Below are positions 1 through 56,291 of a stretch of DNA of 64,000 nt, one piece after another (within the stretch, counting starts at the first letter, position 1; every line of letters begins with the position of its first letter). Source of the stretch: an uncultured Bacteroidota bacterium. GTDB taxonomy: Bacteria; Bacteroidota; Bacteroidia; JABEUT01. The stretch is from contig CAIPDV010000069.1 in assembly GCA_903863935.1 (NCBI GenBank), positions 19,322-83,321 of the forward strand. The letters are read 5' to 3'. The translations under genes were made by a program, and so were the position numbers. The notes beneath the pieces were generated by a model. The model had not been told where the DNA came from. It made no database searches and saw nothing but the letters and a program-made list of their open reading frames with translations.

Positions 1-435
1 GTTTTCATGAATACCTTGGTATAACATTTGATTATTTCTCCTCATTTATTCCGGAAACAAATGATGTTAATCCCAATATCAACATTCAAAATTTCGGCTC
101 CAATGCTGAGCTATCCTTCAATTTTGGGTTCTCGTTAAATTAAGAAATAGAGAAGAATCAAAATTTACATTGCATACCAGCGACAAACGGGGAGATTATT
201 CACAAACTATCGACTTCAAGAGATAACACCTTCCATTGGTGTTTATAGTTATTCTTTTTAATAGTCCGGTTCGGTTCACATAGGCCAGGCCGGATTTGTT
301 AAAATTTCTTAAATGCAATATACTCCCCAAACGTTTTATTCCTCACCCCCGTTATCAAAGGGTGTAGAGCTAATAAAGTTGGAATAATTTACGATAAGAA
401 ATAAACAAGATGGTTTTTGAATTACCTCATTTCAG

Positions 436-509
436 TGGTCCCGGCGGGATTCGAACCCACGACCCACAGATTAGAAATCTGTTGCTCTATCCAACTGAGC
501 TACGGAACC
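436..509 (-). tRNA. tRNA-Arg (anticodon TCT), 74 nt, no encoded CCA
   Basis: The reverse complement folds as a canonical cloverleaf. Acceptor stem GGTTCCG/CGGGACC, D-arm GCTC...GAGC, anticodon stem ACAGA/TCTGT with loop TTTCTAA, T-arm GTGGG-TTCGAAT-CCCGC. Confidence 0.85.
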
Positions 510-523
510 AAAATAGGTGGTTG

Positions 524-598
524 TCGGGGTAGGCAGATTCGAACTGCCGACCTCCACGTCCCGAACGTGGCGCGCTAACCAGGCTACGCTACACCCCG
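524..598 (-). tRNA. tRNA-Pro (anticodon CGG), 75 nt
   Basis: Reverse complement gives acceptor stem CGGGGTG/TACCCCG, anticodon stem CCACG/CGTGG with loop TTCGGGA, and T-arm GTCGGCAGTTCGAATCTGCC. Confidence 0.8.
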
Positions 599-15799: not shown

Positions 15800-17725
15800 C
15801 TAGGCTGTAATCTTATTCAACTCCTCAGAAAACCCTTCCCAAACTTTGAATTTCTCTTCAAGTTTGGTTTTCAGGGTTTGGTAATCGGCCAATATTTTGG
15901 AGGTATCCGGATATGTTTCGTAGAAGTCAGGATGGTTAATAACCTTTTCGGCATCGCTTATTTGTTTCTCTAATTCGGCAATCTCGTCTTCGGTCTTTTT
16001 TATCTTCGATTCCAGGTTCTTCACTTTCCGTACCTCTTCATTCAATGCATTCTGGGCCTTTGGTTCCGCTTTGGCAACCTTCTTATCTTCCATACTTAAC
16101 CTGGTTTCGTTAAGCCTTTCCAGTTTGCGTTTGCGCATAAACTCATTAATATCGCACAGGTGTTCTTTCACATGCCCGTCACGGAATTCATAGAGTTTAT
16201 TTACAAGCCCATCTAAAAAGTCCCTATCGTGAGAAACGATAATCAGTGTGCCTTCATATTTGAGCAAAGCATTTTTCAAAATGTCTTTAGAACGAATATC
16301 CAAGTGGTTGGTAGGCTCATCAAGCATTAGTACGTTATATGGTTGAAGTAGAAGTTTGCATAAAGCTAACCGTCCGCGCTCACCACCGCTAAGTACTTTT
16401 ACTTTTTTATCTACATCCTCACCGCTGAAAAGGAAAGCTCCTAGCAGGTTTCGAATGCGTGCCCTAATCTCACCCACTGCCAATTCATCAATAGTATCAA
16501 AAACTGTTTTGTTGGAATCAAGCTTCTCCGCCTGATCCTGTTCAAAATATCCCATCAACACATTATGGCCCAGTTTTACCATTCCTTCTGTTGCGGTTTG
16601 GGCAGCTATCATTTTCATCATGGTAGTCTTTCCTTCGCCATTCCTGCCTACAAAAGCTATACGTTCTCCTTTCTCAATAATAAAATTAGCGTTTGAAAAT
16701 ATCCTCTTTTCGCCATACATTTTCCCTGCATTCTCCACCGTGAGTGCAATCTTGCCGCTATGCGCAGGAGGCGGGAATTTGAAATACATCGAAGCGGAAT
16801 CATCATTATCCACTTCAATAATATCCATCTTATCGAGCTGCTTAATCAACGATTGTGCGAATGCCGCCTTACTTGCTTTTGCCCTGTACTTGTCAATAAG
16901 CACCTGTGTCTTGGCAATTACCTTTTGTTGGTTTTTAGCAGCTGCTTCCTGTTGCTCTCTGCGCTCTTTGCGGAGCGTGAGGTAGTGGCTATAATTGGTT
17001 TTGTAATCGTAAATCTTATTGTTGGATATCTCAATAGTACGTGTGGTTACGTTATCCAAAAACTTTTTATCGTGGGAAATTAGCACCAACGACCCCGGAA
17101 ATGTTTCCATAAACTCCTCCAGCCATTGCATAGATTCAATGTCCAAGTGATTGGTTGGTTCATCTAATAAAAGTACATCCGGTTTTTGAAGTAAGAGTTT
17201 AACCAGCTCAATACGCATTCTCCATCCGCCGCTAAGCTCTGAGGTAGGACGGTTAAATTCACTTCGTTCAAATCCGAGACCTTTCAGTTTCTTTTCTATT
17301 TCCTCATCACGGTTTCCTGAGCCAAGTATATCAAGGCGATGGGTTATATCGGTTACTTCAGTTATTAAATTGGAATAGGCATCACTTTCATAGTCGGTTC
17401 GGGTCTCTAACTGATGGTTAACCTCGGTAAGCCGGGCTTCTAACTGTTGAATCTCAATAAAAGCAGTTGCAGCCTCTTCAAATACGGTTTTGCCATGTTG
17501 GTGAACCATATCCTGGGGCAAGTAGGCTATTTTAAGGCCGTTTGGTTTACCTATACTGCCAGAGGTAGGGTTTTGCAACCCCGACAAAAGTTTGAGCATG
17601 GTGCTCTTACCTGAGCCATTTTTACCAGCAAGGCCAATACGGTCATTATCATTAACAAGAAAGCTTACGTTCTCGAACAGATTAAAGCCTCCGAAGGCTA
17701 CGGTTATGTTATTTACTGATATCAT
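15800..17725 (-). CDS. ABC-F family ATPase (two fused ABC domains, C-terminal coiled coil), Uup/YbiT/EttA-like
   Basis: Two Walker A motifs (GKNGSGKST, GRNGEGKTT) and two LSGG signatures. No transmembrane domain. Lys/Glu-rich coiled-coil C-terminus. Confidence 0.8.
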   Translation of the reverse strand: MISVNNITVAFGGFNLFENVSFLVNDNDRIGLAGKNGSGKSTMLKLLSGLQNPTSGSIGKPNGLKIAYLPQDMVHQHGKTVFEEAATAFIEIQQLEARLTEVNHQLETRTDYESDAYSNLITEVTDITHRLDILGSGNRDEEIEKKLKGLGFERSEFNRPTSELSGGWRMRIELVKLLLQKPDVLLLDEPTNHLDIESMQWLEEFMETFPGSLVLISHDKKFLDNVTTRTIEISNNKIYDYKTNYSHYLTLRKERREQQEAAAKNQQKVIAKTQVLIDKYRAKASKAAFAQSLIKQLDKMDIIEVDNDDSASMYFKFPPPAHSGKIALTVENAGKMYGEKRIFSNANFIIEKGERIAFVGRNGEGKTTMMKMIAAQTATEGMVKLGHNVLMGYFEQDQAEKLDSNKTVFDTIDELAVGEIRARIRNLLGAFLFSGEDVDKKVKVLSGGERGRLALCKLLLQPYNVLMLDEPTNHLDIRSKDILKNALLKYEGTLIIVSHDRDFLDGLVNKLYEFRDGHVKEHLCDINEFMRKRKLERLNETRLSMEDKKVAKAEPKAQNALNEEVRKVKNLESKIKKTEDEIAELEKQISDAEKVINHPDFYETYPDTSKILADYQTLKTKLEEKFKVWEGFSEELNKITA

Positions 17726-17843
17726 TTTTTATACTTCTTACCCCGATTTTTTGGGTTTGGGCGTGCAAAAGTAAGCTAAAAAAGCGAAAAGGTCGCCTTA
17801 CCGTGAAGTAAGACAACCTTTCAGGTTGAAAAGAGAAGCAAAA

Positions 17844-18089
17844 TTACTTAGCGGCTTTCTTTACAGGAGCACCCTTATGGGTGTGTGCAGCTGGCTTAGC
17901 GGCTGGTTTGGTTGCCGGTTTAACAGCAGGCTTAACGGCTGGTTTAGCAGCAGGTTTTGTGGTTTGTTTCGGATCTTGTTTTGCAACAGGAGCTTTTGTT
18001 GTTTGTTTTACATGTTTTACACTTGGAGCTGCAAAAGCAAAACTTCCGAAGAGAACTGCACTGGCGAGGATCAAACTTAACTTTTTCAT
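17844..18089 (-). CDS. Small secreted Lys/Ala/Pro-rich low-complexity protein, copy 1 of 3 (81 aa)
   Basis: Signal peptide MKKLSLILASAVLFGSFAFA|AP, then KPAAKPAVKPAVKPATKPAAKPAA repeats. Conserved promoter/leader upstream and a hairpin + T-tract downstream. Confidence 0.5.
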   Translation of the reverse strand: MKKLSLILASAVLFGSFAFAAPSVKHVKQTTKAPVAKQDPKQTTKPAAKPAVKPAVKPATKPAAKPAAHTHKGAPVKKAAK

Positions 18090-18129
18090 GACTTTTTTTG
18101 TTTTAATATTATTTGTTAGAATCTGAAAG

Positions 18130-18137
18130 CAAAATTA
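18130..18137 (-). promoter_or_regulatory. Bacteroidetes-type -7 promoter box TAATTTTG for copy 1 of the small Lys-rich genes
   Basis: Matches the TAnnTTTG consensus of Bacteroidetes sigma-A promoters, ~40 nt upstream of the ATG. Lies within a ~75-bp block conserved upstream of all three copies. Confidence 0.45.
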
Positions 18138-18230
18138 CAGTAACAGAATGAAGATGGTATGAAGACCTTCGTGGATAGTGTGTTAATGGATGTTAAAAAA
18201 ACGCGATTGTAAAAAAGATTGGCAGGTTGA

Positions 18231-18272
18231 TTAAAATAAAAAAGGTTGTCTTGCACCAGAGCAAGACAACCT
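18231..18272 (-). terminator. Rho-independent terminator of small Lys-rich gene copy 2
   Basis: Perfect 11-bp stem GGTTGTCTTGC/GCAAGACAACC with a 7-nt loop, followed on the minus strand by a T-tract. Confidence 0.65.
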
Positions 18273-18294
18273 TCCAGGTTGAATAGGACAAGAA

Positions 18295-18660
18295 TTACTT
18301 GGTTTTGGTAGCCTTAGCACCTTCTACTTTTTTGGCCGGAACTTTCTTCACTTCTTTTTTTACTGCAGGTTTGGTAGTTGCAGCTTTAGTAGCAGGAGCC
18401 TTTGTAGCTGGTTTTGCAGTTGCTTTTACAGCCGGGGTTTTAGCCGCTTGCTTGGTTGAACTTGCTTTAGTCGTCTTGGTAGCATGCAAGCCGTTCTTAG
18501 CAGCTGCCGGTTGCATCGTTTGTTTTGCAGCCGGAGTTTTGGTGTCTTGTTTTACTGCAATATTTTTACCAACTTTTGGTACATGTTTTACCATTGGAGC
18601 TGCGAAAGCAAAACTTCCAAAGAGAACTGCACCTGCGAGAATTAAACTTAACTTTTTCAT
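18295..18660 (-). CDS. Small secreted Lys/Ala/Thr-rich low-complexity protein, copy 2 of 3 (121 aa)
   Basis: Same signal peptide (MKKLSLILAGAVLFGSFAFA|AP). Same conserved mature N-terminus (VKHV.K...AVKQD.K). Divergent K/A/T-rich repeat body. Confidence 0.5.
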   Translation of the reverse strand: MKKLSLILAGAVLFGSFAFAAPMVKHVPKVGKNIAVKQDTKTPAAKQTMQPAAAKNGLHATKTTKASSTKQAAKTPAVKATAKPATKAPATKAATTKPAVKKEVKKVPAKKVEGAKATKTK

Positions 18661-18698
18661 GACGTTTTATTTTTTATTAGTTGTTAGAATCTGAAAGC

Positions 18699-18706
18699 AA
18701 AATTAC
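18699..18706 (-). promoter_or_regulatory. -7 promoter box TAATTTTG for copy 2
   Basis: Same position within the conserved upstream block as for copy 1. Confidence 0.45.
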
Positions 18707-18857
18707 AGTAGCAGAATGAAGATGGTATGAAGTATTGGGCTATTGGAGTGTTAACGGAAGTTAATATTTGCAAGATGAAGAATAGTATAAAAGTAAAAGT
18801 GAAAAGGCTGCCCGACGTACCCGCCTGACAGCCTTTCAAGAATTTAAGGAAGTGAAA

Positions 18858-19067
18858 TTACTTAGCGGCTTTCTTGTCAGCTTTTTTCTCAACTTTCTTG
18901 TCAGCTTTCTTTTCCATCTTTTTGTCTACCTTCTTGTCTTCTTTCTTATCGGCTTTCTTAACTGCCTTCTTTTCGGTTTTAGGCTTTTCTTGCTTTACAA
19001 CCGGACGAGCAATAGACATTCCTCCGAAGAGTACTACACCTGCTAGGATCAAACTTAACTTTTTCAT
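18858..19067 (-). CDS. Small secreted Lys-rich low-complexity protein, copy 3 of 3 (69 aa)
   Basis: Related signal peptide MKKLSLILAGVVLFGGMSIA, then KKADKKEDKKVDKKMEKKADKKVEKKADKK repeats. Conserved upstream block and downstream hairpin. Confidence 0.45.
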   Translation of the reverse strand: MKKLSLILAGVVLFGGMSIARPVVKQEKPKTEKKAVKKADKKEDKKVDKKMEKKADKKVEKKADKKAAK

Positions 19068-19108
19068 GACTTTTTTGTTTTTAATATTATTTGTTAGAAA
19101 CTGAAAGC

Positions 19109-19116
19109 AAAACTAC
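19109..19116 (-). promoter_or_regulatory. -7 promoter box TAGTTTTG for copy 3
   Basis: Fits the TAnnTTTG consensus, within the conserved upstream block. Confidence 0.4.
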
Positions 19117-19235
19117 ATCAGCAGAATGAAGGTCGTATGAAGATGAATAGTAGTGCAATGTGAAGGAATGTTAAAATAATTAATTGTCCTTTCTGAATAG
19201 ATTCTATTTTTGCGGTCTCATTAAACATAAACATC

Positions 19236-20210
19236 ATGAAAAAAGGACCAATATCAACATTCATTGACAAGAACTATTTGCACTTTAATTCTGCAACACT
19301 GGTAGATGCATCCAATGCCTACATAAAGCACATGGATAAAAAAGGCAAAATGATGATTACCCTAGCGGGGGCTATGAGTACTGCTGAGTTAGGTATCTCA
19401 CTTGCTGAAATGATTCGCAAGGATAAAGTATCTATTATTTCCTGTACCGGTGCAAACTTGGAGGAGGATATCATGAACCTGGTTGCACATAATCATTATA
19501 AAAGGGTTCCGCATTACAGGCAATTGTCTCCTGCCGAAGAATGGGATTTGTTGGAGCATGGCTATAACCGTGTAACGGATACCTGCATTCCGGAAGAAGA
19601 AGCTTTCCGCCGCATACAATCTCATATTCATAAGTTGTGGAAAAAGGCACAAACCTCAGGTAAACGCTATTTTCCACATGAATATATGTATCAACTGCTG
19701 CTTTCAGGAGTGATGAAAAAGCACTATGAGATTGATACCAAGAATAGTTGGATGATAGCCGCAGCAGAGAAGAACCTGCCTATTATTTGCCCGGGTTGGG
19801 AAGATTCCACTATGGGAAATATTTTTGCTTCTTATTGTATAAAAGAAGAGTTGCAACCTAGCATCGTAAAATCGGGTATTGAATATATGATGTGGCTTGC
19901 CAATTGGTATACCCAAAATTCAAAAGGACAAGGTGTAGGCTTCTACCAGATTGGCGGTGGTATTGCGGGTGATTTCCCAATTTGTGTAGTACCGATGTTA
20001 TATCAGGATATGGAAAGGACCGATACTCCATTCTGGGCTTATTTCTGTCAGATATCGGACTCAACTACCAGTTATGGTTCATACTCGGGAGCAGTGCCAA
20101 ATGAAAAGATTACCTGGGGTAAACTGAGCGATAAAACTCCACGTTTTATAATAGAATCAGACGCTACCATTGTGGCTCCGCTGATGTTTGCATACATATT
20201 AGGTAAGTAG
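19236..20210 (+). CDS. Deoxyhypusine synthase-like protein (DHS family)
   Basis: The N-terminal region (GKMMITLAGAMSTAELGISLAEMIRKDKVSIISCTGANLEEDI) resembles the Rossmann-like core of deoxyhypusine synthase and homospermidine synthase-like proteins. Confidence 0.5.
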   Translation: MKKGPISTFIDKNYLHFNSATLVDASNAYIKHMDKKGKMMITLAGAMSTAELGISLAEMIRKDKVSIISCTGANLEEDIMNLVAHNHYKRVPHYRQLSPAEEWDLLEHGYNRVTDTCIPEEEAFRRIQSHIHKLWKKAQTSGKRYFPHEYMYQLLLSGVMKKHYEIDTKNSWMIAAAEKNLPIICPGWEDSTMGNIFASYCIKEELQPSIVKSGIEYMMWLANWYTQNSKGQGVGFYQIGGGIAGDFPICVVPMLYQDMERTDTPFWAYFCQISDSTTSYGSYSGAVPNEKITWGKLSDKTPRFIIESDATIVAPLMFAYILGK

Positions 20211-20286: not shown

Positions 20287-21030
20287 ATGACACATACCTA
20301 CAAAATAACCGGAATGACTTGCAGTGGCTGTGAAGCCACCGTGAAAGGTAATTTACTGAAACTGTCCGAGGTTGAATCCGTAGAATTATCAAAGGATACA
20401 GGTATTGCGACTATAGGAATGAGCAAACATCTTTCAGTTTCCGATTTACAGAATGCAATTGGAATAAATAGTAAATATCATATTTCGGAAGATAGTAATC
20501 AGTCATCAGTTGTCAGTAGTCAGTCATCTACCGAGTATAGAAGTTGGTTAGCTACTTACAAACCCCTCATCATTCTGTTTAGTTTAATATTTAGTGTTTC
20601 ACTCATCGCATCTAAAAAGGCTGACGGAACTGTTGAATTTACAACCTGGATGCGGTATTTCATGGCAGGATTTTTTCTTTGCTTTTCATATTTCAAGCTC
20701 ATTAATGTAAAAGCTTTTGCCGATTCATTCAGTATGTATGACATTGTCGCTAAACGTATAAAAACCTGGGGATTTATGTACCCTTTTATGGAACTCGCTT
20801 TAGGTATTTTGTATGCAATGAATTTATACCCGCTATATACCAATATTGCAACCGTTGCCATTATGGGTGTAAGCAGCATCGGGGTAATACAAAGTGTTGC
20901 GAGCAAGAAAAAAATTCAATGTGCTTGCTTGGGTGCAGTGTTTAATTTGCCGATGAGTACTATTACCATTATAGAAGACTTATTAATGGTAGTAATGGCA
21001 GGTGGAATGATTTGGATGGAGTTGAAATAA
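20287..21030 (+). CDS. Heavy-metal-associated (HMA) domain fused to a MauE/DoxX-like membrane domain
   Basis: N-terminal GMTCSGCEATV metal-binding motif. C-terminal ~140 aa have four predicted TM helices with MauE-like features. Confidence 0.5.
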   Translation: MTHTYKITGMTCSGCEATVKGNLLKLSEVESVELSKDTGIATIGMSKHLSVSDLQNAIGINSKYHISEDSNQSSVVSSQSSTEYRSWLATYKPLIILFSLIFSVSLIASKKADGTVEFTTWMRYFMAGFFLCFSYFKLINVKAFADSFSMYDIVAKRIKTWGFMYPFMELALGILYAMNLYPLYTNIATVAIMGVSSIGVIQSVASKKKIQCACLGAVFNLPMSTITIIEDLLMVVMAGGMIWMELK

Positions 21031-21614: not shown

Positions 21615-22034
21615 ATGGCAAAAACAATTGTTCAAAAAGTAGTGTTTAAGAACACAACACCAAAAGCACTTTACGACCTATATATGGATGCTAAAAAGCA
21701 TACCTTAATATGCGGTGCAGATTGCGAAATAACTCCCAAAGAGGGAACTAAATATTCCGTTTACGGAGGATATGCTACCGGGAAAAACCTTCAATTAATA
21801 AAAGATAAACTCATTGTTCAATCGTGGAGGGCGTCGGACTGGGATGAAAACCAAATGGACTCAACCTTTATTATCAACCTTGAACAAAAAGGTAAGGATG
21901 TAGTTTTGAATGCCATTCACGCTAATTTACCGGATAAAGAAGCTAAGAGTATTGACCAGGGCTGGCATGATTTTTACTGGAATCCCTGGAAACAACATCT
22001 AGCAGGCAAACCGATCACTCGTGCAGAAATGTAA
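21615..22034 (+). CDS. SRPBCC-superfamily protein (Aha1/activator-of-Hsp90-ATPase-like domain)
   Basis: ~139 aa with sequence features of the AHSA1/SRPBCC ligand-binding fold. Weak, pattern-based call. Confidence 0.4.
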   Translation: MAKTIVQKVVFKNTTPKALYDLYMDAKKHTLICGADCEITPKEGTKYSVYGGYATGKNLQLIKDKLIVQSWRASDWDENQMDSTFIINLEQKGKDVVLNAIHANLPDKEAKSIDQGWHDFYWNPWKQHLAGKPITRAEM

Positions 22035-22107
22035 ATTATTTTTTCGGTTTGTCCGGAAATGAAAATAGAGAACGGCTTAATAGTATAAATCAACAAACAA
22101 AAACAAA

Positions 22108-22593
22108 ATGAAAAAGTCAAGTTACGAGTCAGAAATTATTCTGAAACTGAACAGCAGATTATTTACCAGTGCATTGGATGGTGTTACCGATGAACATGCC
22201 GCTCAGCAATTAAGTGACCACAATAATCCGTTAAAATGGATTGCGACCCATACCGTCTGGGCAAGGTATAATATGTTGAATATTTTAGGCAAGCCTGCAA
22301 CAAATCCGTATGCCGGAATGTTTGAAAATTTCAGACCTTATAATGCTGCCGACAAATACCCTACACTTGCTGAGGTGAAACAAGAATGGGCTAAAGTTAC
22401 AGCGTTACTCTACGATGCAATGGCTTCAGTAACGGAAGAACACCTTGCCGCTGATTGTCCTTTGAAAAGCCCTATTGGAGATTTTTCAAATGGAGGAACC
22501 TTCGCTTTCCTTGCACAGCATGAGAGTTATGATATTGGTCAAATAGGCTTTTTGAAAAAGTATTACACAAAGGAAGCAATGAAGTATAATTAA
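22108..22593 (+). CDS. DinB/YfiT-like (DinB_2 family) protein
   Basis: ~160 aa helical-bundle protein with conserved His/Asp positions typical of the DinB-like metalloenzyme superfamily. Confidence 0.4.
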   Translation: MKKSSYESEIILKLNSRLFTSALDGVTDEHAAQQLSDHNNPLKWIATHTVWARYNMLNILGKPATNPYAGMFENFRPYNAADKYPTLAEVKQEWAKVTALLYDAMASVTEEHLAADCPLKSPIGDFSNGGTFAFLAQHESYDIGQIGFLKKYYTKEAMKYN

Positions 22594-22679
22594 TTTCAGT
22601 TCATTGTCCGGAAGTAAAAACCTCACACGTCATAGTATCATAAAACAATAAATTAGTAACCTTTAAAACAACAACCAAA

Positions 22680-23024
22680 ATGGAAAAATTCTTGTATTTA
22701 TTCAGAGGGGGTATGGATTATACCGCTGCGTCACCCGAAGCTATGCAGGCAAATATGCAAAAATGGAATCAATGGATGGGTAAGTTAATGCAGGATGGCA
22801 TTATGCAAGGCGGAGAGCCATTGCAAGCTGCATCTAAAAAAGTGGCAGGAAAATCGAAAGTAGTTACCGACGGCCCATTTGCCGAAGCCAAAGAAATTGT
22901 TGGCGGTTATCTGCTCATCAATGCCAATGATATAAACCATGCCGTTGAATTATCAAAAGGCTGCCCCATATTCGAAATGGATGGAAGCGTTGAAGTTCGT
23001 CCTATTCAGAAAATGGAAATGTAA
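22680..23024 (+). CDS. YCII-related (DGPF-like) domain protein
   Basis: ~114 aa. GGEPLQ....GGYLLINANDINHAVELSKGCP matches the YciI-like family. Directly upstream of an ECF sigma factor. Confidence 0.6.
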   Translation: MEKFLYLFRGGMDYTAASPEAMQANMQKWNQWMGKLMQDGIMQGGEPLQAASKKVAGKSKVVTDGPFAEAKEIVGGYLLINANDINHAVELSKGCPIFEMDGSVEVRPIQKMEM

Positions 23025-23026
23025 AC

Positions 23027-24292
23027 TTGCCTTCAAACGAAGACAAATCAGTAAGTACAATGGTTGACCATCTTTTCCGGCACGAGTCGGGAAAGATGGT
23101 TGCCGTTTTAACAAGGGTATTCGGTTTTGCAAACATTGAGCAGGCCGAAGACATTGTTCAGGATACCCTTATTCGTGCCCTTGAAACATGGAGATTTGGT
23201 AAAATACCGGATAATCCTCAAGCATGGCTTTATCGCACTGCGAAGAATAAAGCCATCGATTTAATCCGCCGTCAAAAAGTAAAACACAAAATTGAAAGTG
23301 AGCTTGCACCACTTTTAAAATCTGAATATACATTAGTTCCTTCCATGAATGAAATGTTCCGTGAAAATGAAATTAAAGATAGCCAGTTGAGAATGATGTT
23401 TGCCTGTTGCCATCCGGCTATTGCACTCGAGTCGCAACTTACATTGATGCTAAAAACACTTTGTGGACTTAGTTCAAAAGAGATAGGCAATGCATTTCTT
23501 TCAAGTGAAGATACTATTCAAAAACGACTTTACCGTACCAAAGAAAAAATAAAAGAAGAACGTATTTCGCTCGAGTATCCGGGAGCCGATAGTATGCCTG
23601 TGAGGTTAGATACTGTGCTGAAAGCATTGTATTTATTGTTTAATGAAGGGTACAATTCTTCTCACCCGGAAAAATTGATTCGGGATGATTTATGTGAAGA
23701 AGCTATACGTTTAACACTTCTGCTAACAGAAAACCCGAAGACTAACCTTCCGCAAACCAATGCACTTTTAGCCTTGATGTGTTTTCAGGCTTCGCGCTTT
23801 GGTGCAAGGCTTGATGATAAAGGATTCATGGTGCTTTTAAAAGACCAGGACAGAACTCATTGGAACAAATTCTTAATTCAACGAGGAAATGAATATCTCA
23901 ATAGTGCTGCCGAAGGAGACATGATTCATGAATATCATTTTGAAGCAGCAATTGCATCTCTTCACGCTAATGCAAAATCGTATGAAGAAACTAATTGGAG
24001 TTTAATTCTGCAACTATATAATAGTCTTTCCAGCCGCACACAAAACCCAATGGTGGCTATTAACAGGTGCATTGTATTGGGTGAAGTGGAAGGATATGAA
24101 AAAGCAATTTCAGAATTAGAAAAAATTAAAGGATTTAATAATAATTGCTACTACAATGCATCTCTCGGAGAGATGTATCTGAAAGCAGGCAACAAAAATG
24201 AAGCCATCAGCTATTTTCAAAAAGCACTTGAACTAACTTCCTCCAATGCAGAGATTGAATTGATAAGAAGGAAGATAAATATGTGTAAGTAA
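23027..24292 (+). CDS. ECF-type RNA polymerase sigma factor with a long C-terminal TPR-like extension (ECF42-like architecture)
   Basis: Sigma-70 region 2 (DIVQDTLIRALETWRFGKIPDNPQAWLYRTAKNKAIDLIRRQ) and region 4 (TLCGLSSKEIGNAFLSSEDTIQKRLYRTKEKI). A ~230-aa C-terminal helical repeat extension. A YCII/DGPF neighbour is the known ECF42 context. Confidence 0.6.
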   Translation: MPSNEDKSVSTMVDHLFRHESGKMVAVLTRVFGFANIEQAEDIVQDTLIRALETWRFGKIPDNPQAWLYRTAKNKAIDLIRRQKVKHKIESELAPLLKSEYTLVPSMNEMFRENEIKDSQLRMMFACCHPAIALESQLTLMLKTLCGLSSKEIGNAFLSSEDTIQKRLYRTKEKIKEERISLEYPGADSMPVRLDTVLKALYLLFNEGYNSSHPEKLIRDDLCEEAIRLTLLLTENPKTNLPQTNALLALMCFQASRFGARLDDKGFMVLLKDQDRTHWNKFLIQRGNEYLNSAAEGDMIHEYHFEAAIASLHANAKSYEETNWSLILQLYNSLSSRTQNPMVAINRCIVLGEVEGYEKAISELEKIKGFNNNCYYNASLGEMYLKAGNKNEAISYFQKALELTSSNAEIELIRRKINMCK

Positions 24293-56213: not shown

Positions 56214-56291
56214 GGTGGATGTAGCTCAGTTGGTTAGAGCATCAGATTGTGGTTCTGAGGGTCGCGGGTTCGAGCCCCGTCTTCCACCCCA
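56214..56291 (+). tRNA. tRNA-His (anticodon GTG) with encoded G-1 and CCA
   Basis: GGTGGATG acceptor (8-bp with G-1), D-arm GCTC..GAGC, anticodon stem TCAGA/TCTGA with loop TTGTGGT, T-arm GCGGGTTCGAGCCCCGT, then CTTCCACC-CCA. Confidence 0.85.

Follow-up and report, generated by a model that had tools for sequence, protein, structure and literature searches.

Asr of Escherichia coli is a positively charged, intrinsically disordered periplasmic chaperone that is induced about 1000-fold at pH 4.4, where it takes up some 2% of ribosome footprints. Cells require it to survive acid and to keep the outer membrane intact, it promotes or prevents the aggregation of its clients, and its gene is transcribed via the RstB-RstA two-component system, on which the protein in turn feeds back. 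That small periplasmic polycationic disordered stress proteins can be under two-component control is known already. AlgP (AlgR3) and PhaF of Pseudomonas are cytoplasmic and bind polyphosphate granules or RNA (PMC9239181, PMC12818456), and SilE, whose gene adjoins silRS, is periplasmic and disordered (PMC5008109). Here we analyze a 64-kb stretch of DNA (the window) from an uncultured soil Bacteroidia genome, which carries on its minus strand a tandem array of three genes for small Lys-rich proteins. We consider it very likely that the three genes are genuine, that each is transcribed separately, and that they encode Sec-exported, disordered polycations processed by signal peptidase I (SPase I).

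Between positions 17500 and 19500 of the window three open reading frames (ORFs) run head to tail on the minus strand, encoding 69 residues (copy 1, 18858..19067), 121 residues (copy 2, 18295..18660) and 81 residues (copy 3, 17844..18089). An initial annotation of this DNA, made from the sequence alone, had proposed three such units, each with a conserved upstream block of about 75 bp holding a TAnnTTTG -7 box and each with its own hairpin and T-tract terminator, the bodies diverging between copies while the 5' signals are kept. This layout holds throughout. The aligned units have a mean column identity of 69% that is unevenly spread: 81-88% over the last 75 nucleotides (nt) before the ATG and 74-91% over the first 22 codons, the signal-peptide region, as against 43-55% in the remaining coding region; at -110 to -76 it is 54-63%. 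The signal peptides of copies 2 and 3 differ by five synonymous changes and one non-synonymous change. The -7 box, of the Bacteroidota sigma-A type, stands 37-40 nt upstream of each ATG and reads TAGTTTTG in copy 1 (19108..19115) and TAATTTTG in copy 2 (18698..18705) and copy 3 (18130..18137); the leader that follows is A-rich and has no Shine-Dalgarno sequence. At its 3' end each unit has a hairpin of 15-16 bp and then a U-tract, located at 18795..18837 for copy 1 (hairpin 18802-18837, U-tract 18795-18801; -22.9 kcal/mol, z -3.9), with the hairpins of copies 2 and 3 at 18240..18275 (-23.1 kcal/mol, z -5.5) and 17787..17822 (-20.5 kcal/mol, z -5.5); none of 200 shuffles was as stable. The plus-strand ORFs called across the array (17881-18126, 18299-18694 and 18874-19104) had been set aside as low-complexity artefacts, rightly so: they are reverse-complement low-complexity frames, and relatives were found for the minus-strand products only.

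Export of the three proteins, which the initial annotation had deduced, is well supported by sequence features. Each precursor has the n-region MKK, an h-region of 17 residues with an internal Gly and a mean hydropathy of about 2.2, and a c-region ending in AFA| or SIA|. The signal peptide of copy 1 (codons 1-20, 19008..19067) is MKKLSLILAGVVLFGGMSIA, followed by RP at the predicted SPase I site SIA|RP; those of copy 2 (18601..18660) and copy 3 (18030..18089) are MKKLSLILAGAVLFGSFAFA and MKKLSLILASAVLFGSFAFA, both followed by AP at a predicted site AFA|AP. The signal peptides had been described as near-identical and the mature parts as sharing the start VKHV..VAKQD.K, which is true of copies 2 and 3 (19/20 signal-peptide residues identical) but not of copy 1, which shares 15 of the 20 residues and has no such mature start; as judged from these identities, copy 1 is a more distant paralogue than the other two. 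When 153 family members are aligned in register, position -1 is A, G or S in all 153 and position -3 is S, T, A or G in 142, the commonest residue at +2 is Pro, and Gln occupies +1 in 35. Gln at +1 is a signature of Bacteroidetes SPase I substrates, known as the Q-rule (PMC5837995, PMC10653852), and the match to this rule strongly suggests that the predicted site is used. Given that none of the three window proteins contains Cys, they are not lipoproteins.

The predicted mature parts of copies 1, 2 and 3 carry net charges of +13, +22 and +14, with isoelectric points of 10.1, 10.7 and 10.8. They have no aromatic residue, 0-4 Leu, Ile or Met (Met, counted from the translations, being 1, 2 and 0) and 0, 2 and 3 His, respectively. 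The divergent polycationic bodies foreseen in the initial annotation are thus present; their lengths are not as given there, the mature parts comprising 49, 101 and 61 residues. The bodies are built of 12-nt tandem units, that is of four residues: (KKxD/E)n in copy 1, where the unit is repeated 7.7 times, and (KPAx)n in copy 3, where six units precede HTHKGAPVKKAAK; the four-residue units of copies 1 and 2 are other than KPAA/AAKP. Copy 2 is rich in K, A, T and P and holds the family motif KKEVKKVPAKK, which recurs as (E)VKKVPA(K/R)K in many distant family members, and short His segments such as HTHKG and SHQHGHEHK are found in copy 3 and its orthologues. AlphaFold models made with the family alignment show for copy 1 the signal-peptide helix and one long low-confidence helix (residues 31-68, predicted local distance difference test (pLDDT) 54-67), for copy 2 no secondary structure past the signal peptide (pLDDT about 50), and for neither any tertiary structure; the mature parts are predicted to be intrinsically disordered. 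The three proteins end in ..KAAK (copy 1, 18858-18863), ..TKTK (copy 2, 18295-18300) and ..KAAK (copy 3, 17844-17849). A C-terminal Lys is found in 47 of 50 family members, as against 15.5 expected from composition, in 92 of 114 members of a wider set, and in 53 of 57 unrelated-looking small proteins of the same class that lie behind the promoter motif described below, although, because the sequences are related, this statistic is inflated and gives no true probability.

That the proteins have no characterized homologue, as the initial annotation had supposed, agrees with our searches. When the three proteins and ten relatives were scanned against Pfam and NCBIfam, only sub-threshold noise came up, and a search of PDB sequences with the family profile gave nothing meaningful. 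A profile of the three proteins finds 45 relatives in a collection of 5.8 billion sequences, all of 54-121 residues, all 'hypothetical' or unnamed and all from uncultured Bacteroidia; an exhaustive HMMER search of 1.84 billion representatives gives 123 matches, nearly all of 44-90 residues and, like the 45, without a name and from uncultured Bacteroidia, and a recognizable copy is present in only 5 of about 185,000 species genomes. Whether tandem copy number varies among relatives had been left as a question, and it does, from one to three copies: two tandem copies are present in L010, L014 and L015, and single or dispersed copies in L009, L011 and L139. In the lineage of the window (L001, L002) the triplet is flanked by a divergent deoxyhypusine-synthase-like gene on one side and by an ABC-F gene on the other, and it has the same placement in three further lineages (L003/L004, L005-L008 and L140/L141), hence the triplication is old rather than recent. 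Orthologues of copy 1 (P0011, P0014, P0016, P0018) and of copy 3 (P0001-P0007) can be told apart, the latter with a variable number, about 4-10, of KPxx units. Trees of the terminators group by position, that is by orthology, whereas in trees of the 5' ends copies 2 and 3 group by genome or lineage and copy 1 groups with its orthologues. This difference points to partial concerted evolution, by gene conversion, of the block of promoter, leader and signal peptide in copies 2 and 3, and indicates that such conversion probably comes on top of purifying selection. By these comparisons the three genes have long stood together in conserved synteny, and their paralogue types have become differentiated.

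The promoters of the array share a further element. Where the canonical -33 TTTG would stand they have a direct repeat, CTTCAT-N5-CTTCAT, with an 11-bp phase, which is a candidate response-regulator site: CTTCATACGACCTTCAT over the -33 region of copy 1 (19126..19142) and CTTCATACCATCTTCAT in copy 2 (18716..18732) and copy 3 (18148..18164). Upstream of copy 1 lies a distal conserved box, TTTTAACATTCCTTCACA (19159..19176), which holds CTTCAC 23 nt upstream of the proximal repeat. In an alignment of 21 promoters of paralogues and orthologues, anchored on the -7 box, CTTCAT(A/T)-N4-CTTCATTCTG is conserved, ending 10 nt before TAnnTTTG; the -7 element and the distal box are kept as well, and the roughly 16 nt between the distal box and the repeat are not. 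Within the window the exact repeat occurs at the three array promoters only, and with at most one mismatch there are 4 matches against 1.05 expected. In loci of 12-16 kb from relatives (L137, L117, L080, L009, L011) it is found once per locus, always before the small gene of the array type. Promoters activated by regulators of the OmpR/PhoB family classically have an 11-bp-phased direct repeat that overlaps the -35/-33 region, from which it is reasonable to infer that an OmpR-family regulator drives the array genes; we think it probable that such a regulator controls them by binding to the CTTCAT repeat.

We find the same signature well beyond the family. A scan of metagenome contigs for CTTCAT-N5-CTTCAT-N10-TAnnTTTG gave at least 120 loci, with 133 matches listed, and about 60 of these 133 lie 20-60 nt upstream of a small ORF (55-90 residues) whose product combines a signal peptide with a Lys-rich tail. 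In many of these ORFs the signal peptides are quite different (MKKLAILAVAVLGT.., MRNLLMLLVAVLGTS.., MKLTNVIATG..) and many cannot be aligned to the window family past the signal peptide; other genes behind the motif encode OmpR-type response regulators and DUF4382 lipoproteins. An OmpR-family regulator lies within a few kb in 42 of the 120 loci listed, and in at least five loci the motif stands directly before the regulator gene. Gene order is stereotyped (motif, small gene, regulator, kinase, motif and second small gene), and relative to the regulator start the motifs lie 400-660 nt upstream and about 2070-2085 nt downstream. This module is present in cultured Flavobacterium species, and at the Flavobacterium-type loci it has no efflux pump. 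Two lineages have an efflux cluster (L117 1-9962; L137/L138 6073-16102) headed by a true homologue of the array genes, P0053 or the L117 gene, both from the VKKVPAKK clade; the order is PagL-like lipid A deacylase, DUF2807 gene, motif and small gene, CzcR-like regulator, kinase, outer-membrane factor, CzcB-like membrane-fusion protein and CusA/CzcA resistance-nodulation-division (RND) pump. The pump scores 951 bits on TIGR00914 (cutoff 701) and the regulator 254.6 bits on TIGR01387 (cutoff 279). No motif-linked regulator reaches the cutoff of a named equivalog; the best matches are to PmrA or PhoB for one clade of regulators and to the heavy-metal CusR/CzcR subfamily for another.

Two established regulons were considered as a source of this signature. 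The repeat resembles a Pho box, but the Pho regulon was set aside: the associated regulators reach only 138-160 bits on the Bacteroidota PhoB model, whose cutoff is 270, and the support from a phosphate-selective porin O/P gene comes from one lineage only. That gene (PF07396, 222 bits) stands behind the motif in L025, L028 and L083, where it could be a chance occurrence or a hint of an anion-related function. PmrA is the best match of the Flavobacterium-type regulator and has a similar box, but at 180 bits against a cutoff of 330 it is a lead only.

Other genes associated with the motif deserve mention in their own right. The Flavobacterium-type module (L133, L135, L085, L120, L038, L039 and about 30 other loci) often adjoins polA and a membrane metallophosphoesterase gene, and its kinase has its best match, below cutoff, in the PorY family. 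AraC-type regulators (HTH_18) with an N-terminal CxxC segment resembling a heavy-metal-associated (HMA) domain (MVCIRCQMAVKSELEKLG..) stand directly behind the motif in L034, L061, L070 and L087. In L021, L033, L040 and L128 the motif precedes secreted Q/E/T/K-repeat proteins of 120-225 residues (..KEQKQTQTKEQ..) with a basic tail (..KKKGGK), possibly a second class of exported low-complexity proteins that belongs to this putative regulon. In L042, L068 and L106 the small secreted proteins encoded behind the motif share a C-terminal ..VKSARPDMSKARGARPP.. and then a Gly/Pro/Arg-rich tail; the one representative scanned, from L042, matched no Pfam family.

In the window itself, the gene divergent from copy 1 (19236-20210, plus strand) is deoxyhypusine-synthase/homospermidine-synthase-like (PF01916), with all NCBIfam equivalogs far below cutoff, at about 110 bits against 304-450. 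A functional link to the array, by modification of Lys, was considered and dropped: the synteny is confined to one clade, in which the whole 10-kb neighbourhood is conserved, and it is absent in L009, L011, L117, L137 and L139, so that a Lys-modifying role on the array proteins is conceivable and unsupported. The gene at 20287-21030 (plus strand), two genes from the array and at the same position in related metagenome-assembled genomes (MAGs), encodes a membrane protein in which an N-terminal HMA domain (GMTCSGC) is fused to a MauE-like domain. Further on (21615-24292, plus strand) lie AHSA1-like, DinB_2 and YCII genes together with a sigma-factor-like gene (Sigma70_r2 and DUF6596), in an order that is the same in all related MAG contigs. 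An Rfam scan of the array region and of the whole window returned no RNA family except three tRNAs elsewhere, tRNA-Arg(TCT) and tRNA-Pro(CGG), which adjoin each other (435-598, minus strand), and tRNA-His(GTG) (56215-56291, plus strand).

How does the array compare with the described systems? Asr, whose sequence in the MG1655 record ('periplasmic chaperone Asr') begins MKKVLALVVAAAMGLSSAAFA|AETTTTPAPTATTTKAAPAKTTHHKKQHKAAPAQKAQAAKKHHK..., likewise has a precursor of about 100 residues and a signal peptide of the form MKK...AFA|A. Lys, Ala, Pro, Thr and Gln abound in its mature part, next to some His; this part is devoid of hydrophobic or aromatic residues, disordered and polycationic, as in the window proteins. 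Both asr and the window genes have each their own promoter and terminator, and an OmpR-family regulator acts on direct repeats, RstA or PhoB in E. coli and a putative one for the window genes. One Flavobacterium member of the wider class bears the UniRef name 'Acid-shock protein'. Asr differs from the window proteins in that its operator is the RstA box GTACATATCGTTACA upstream of asr rather than CTTCAT-N5-CTTCAT, and in that it belongs to Enterobacteria and so to a different phylum; the window has three differentiated tandem paralogues with four-residue repeats and with basic residues near the cleavage site. The initial annotation had compared the composition to histone H1 and AlgP. The extreme Lys/Ala/Pro content, the disorder and the KPAA/AAKP tetrapeptide repeats are indeed common to these proteins and the window proteins, the repeats in copy 3, and the polyanion binding (polyphosphate granules, RNA, DNA) that goes with this composition is a demonstrated activity; AlgP and PhaF, however, have no signal peptide and have a structured N-terminal domain, whereas the window proteins have a conserved signal peptide and no other domain. 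Periplasmic Asr is the closest known analogue of the window proteins, and a better one than cytoplasmic AlgP/H1.

Other exported proteins resemble the window proteins in part. SilE and PcoE are small, exported and disordered, and are transcribed separately beside a CusRS-type system and a heavy-metal RND pump, an arrangement found for the homologues in L117 and L137/L138 but not in the window, where the deoxyhypusine-synthase-like and ABC-F genes are the flanks and no efflux system is adjacent. Moreover, SilE and PcoE bind Ag+/Cu+ by His/Met motifs, whereas the window proteins are Lys-rich with few or no His/Met. CpxP, Spy and ZraP are small periplasmic proteins too. No other targets of their envelope-stress two-component systems are induced as strongly, their genes often adjoin those of the system, and they serve as chaperone and/or feedback modulator; they are, in contrast, a folded helical defined family without sequence or predicted structural similarity to the window proteins. 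Lpp is likewise small, with a strong promoter, a terminator and a C-terminal Lys, but the window proteins have neither a lipobox Cys nor coiled-coil heptads. With TonB and TolA they have a linker-like composition in common; a C-terminal domain is absent, and Pfam gives no TonB_C or TolA match. A literature search found no description of this family, of the promoter signature, or of the association with two-component systems and Czc clusters, and all of these, including the triplicated differentiated form and the phylum-wide extent of the signature, appear undescribed.

We propose that the precursors would be exported by Sec and cut by SPase I behind residue 20, at SIA|R for copy 1 and at AFA|A for the other two, which would free cationic proteins of 49-101 residues, +13 to +22 in charge and lacking any folded domain, into the periplasm or the envelope. 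Every gene would be a separate transcription unit, with a sigma-A promoter whose -33 region is replaced by the 11-bp-phased CTTCAT repeat, and this repeat would be bound by an OmpR/PhoB-family response regulator encoded elsewhere in the genome, so that the three genes would be induced together as part of an envelope-stress regulon. As with Asr, the freed polycations may act electrostatically under acid and/or metal-cation stress, binding or shielding anionic envelope components and unfolded periplasmic proteins, and a feedback on the sensor kinase is possible. That they bind eDNA, LPS or polyphosphate, as put forward in the initial annotation, is conjecture. The backbones of the paralogues would differ, that of copy 1 charged and possibly helical, that of copy 3 Pro-Lys extended and that of copy 2 a random coil with VKKVPAKK. 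What the analysis shows is that the genes are real, how they are laid out, the features of their signal peptides, the predicted disorder, the conservation of the promoters, and the occurrence of the motif together with two-component systems and, among homologues, with a CzcCBA cluster; we infer the binding of the regulator, the inducing signal, the localization and the protective mechanism. An Asr-like exported polycation family under an envelope-stress regulator is in our judgment the best overall explanation, with an even chance of being right; that the proteins act as Asr does, in a protective or modulatory capacity, when acid and/or metal cations stress the envelope, for which we argue by analogy, is proposed more tentatively, at somewhat below even.

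Several observations weigh against this explanation. The first 18 mature residues of the window proteins have a net charge of +4 to +6, and such a charge is unfavourable to export by Sec in E. coli; moreover the +1 residue of these proteins is A or R, not Q. The 64-kb window contains no response regulator, thus the link to one rests on other genomes; there the motif is associated with two regulator clades that are only about 31% identical to each other, so that the cognate regulator is not pinned down, and in L137 the repeat is not found upstream of the efflux genes. Cluster members of the family come from uncultured sources only. With regard to Asr, its sequence scores 47.8 bits on PF06392 (cutoff 24.9), yet the three window proteins and two Flavobacterium proteins are not listed by this model even at E<=10, and hhalign of the family alignment with Asr aligns residues 1-23, the signal peptide, only, at 47% probability. 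An Asr-like function would therefore be analogy and not homology. Asr is also His-rich and ends in ..QPAA, whereas the window proteins have much less His and a conserved C-terminal Lys.

The charge distribution bears on a different topology (N-out/C-in): the hydrophobic N-terminal segment would not be cleaved but would anchor the protein in the membrane with its polycationic tail on the cytoplasmic side, where, tethered in this way, the protein would resemble AlgP or H1 and bind nucleic acids, ribosomes or polyphosphate at the membrane. The positive-inside rule would favour it, the N-terminal flank being +2 against +4 to +6 in the 18 residues past the hydrophobic segment, and copy 3 has repeats of the KPAA type, as do AlgP and PhaF, which are cytoplasmic (PMC9239181, PMC12818456). 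We regard it as quite unlikely, given the conserved small residues at -3 and -1, the frequent Pro at +2, the Q-rule residue in a part of the family, and an h-region that is only 17 residues long and holds a Gly; E. coli Asr, furthermore, shows that such polycations can be exported. If the proteins do reach the periplasm, they could be structural tethers or spacers, the C-terminal Lys being joined to peptidoglycan by L,D-transpeptidases as in Braun's lipoprotein and the Pro-Lys or charged helical stretches bridging or filling the periplasm in the manner of TonB/TolA linkers. The prevalence of that Lys in the family and in the motif-linked small ORFs fits, as do a size near that of Lpp and a strong promoter and terminator suggestive of high abundance. 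The linker regions of TonB and TolA have (KP)n and K/A/D/E-helix compositions, which those of the window proteins recall. Still, the proteins lack a lipobox Cys or any other anchor in the outer membrane and hence have nothing to tether, heptad coiled coils are absent, the Lys statistic is inflated by non-independent sequences, and a terminal Lys could equally shield a disordered protein from periplasmic proteases that recognize C-termini. We know of no peptidoglycan-linked proteins of this Lys-rich kind in Bacteroidota, and consider such a role improbable.

The efflux clusters raise another interpretation, that the proteins are metal-stress 'sponges' or accessory proteins of a CzcRS/CzcCBA-type system, like SilE, PcoE or CzcI, and would bind the toxic ion or modulate the kinase instead of serving as general polycations. 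Homologues are the first gene of a cluster of regulator, kinase, outer-membrane factor, fusion protein and CzcA in two lineages, copy 3 and its orthologues have short His segments, His-rich relatives stand behind the same promoter in L019 and L066, an HMA-domain membrane protein is encoded two genes away in the window, and SilE, a disordered periplasmic protein encoded next to silRS, provides a precedent (PMC5008109). Soft or borderline metal cations, on the other hand, are poorly bound by Lys; His and Cys are absent from copy 1 and copies 2 and 3 have only 2-3 His, the Flavobacterium-type module comes without an efflux pump, and in the lineage of the window the array is not adjacent to any metal system. 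This interpretation we hold to be unlikely. Finally, small cationic proteins with a signal peptide, made by tandem paralogues with fast-evolving bodies and variable repeat numbers, recall secreted antimicrobial or competition peptides that diversify in an arms race. The mature parts, however, have no amphipathic or hydrophobic character, as their lack of aromatics and their 0-4 Leu, Ile or Met attest; no immunity, dedicated exporter or maturation gene is nearby, chromosomal synteny is stable, and an outer-membrane route is lacking, there being no type IX secretion system C-terminal domain. Such an arms race is accordingly very improbable.

A broader proposal is that across Bacteroidota dedicated two-component systems control fast-evolving small exported polycations, the array being one instance, that reset the fixed charge, and with it the Donnan potential, of the periplasm, alongside CzcCBA-type efflux. 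Non-diffusible positive charge would flood the periplasm and lower the periplasmic concentration of protons and toxic metal cations, the polycations possibly being fixed to peptidoglycan via the conserved C-terminal Lys, in a physical, non-enzymatic stress defence. We offer this as speculation, with little expectation that it is correct in full. The promoter signature, CTTCAT-N5-CTTCAT, N10, TAnnTTTG, gives a means to find the regulon in any Bacteroidota genome and points to its regulators. If the Asr-like explanation is true, Bacteroidota would have independently evolved an equivalent of Asr, abundant exported disordered polycations under envelope-stress two-component systems; the occurrence of related modules in cultured Flavobacterium species makes this directly testable. 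It would enlarge the short list of disordered proteins known to function in the periplasm of bacteria and could help explain the acid or metal tolerance of soil and peat Bacteroidia.

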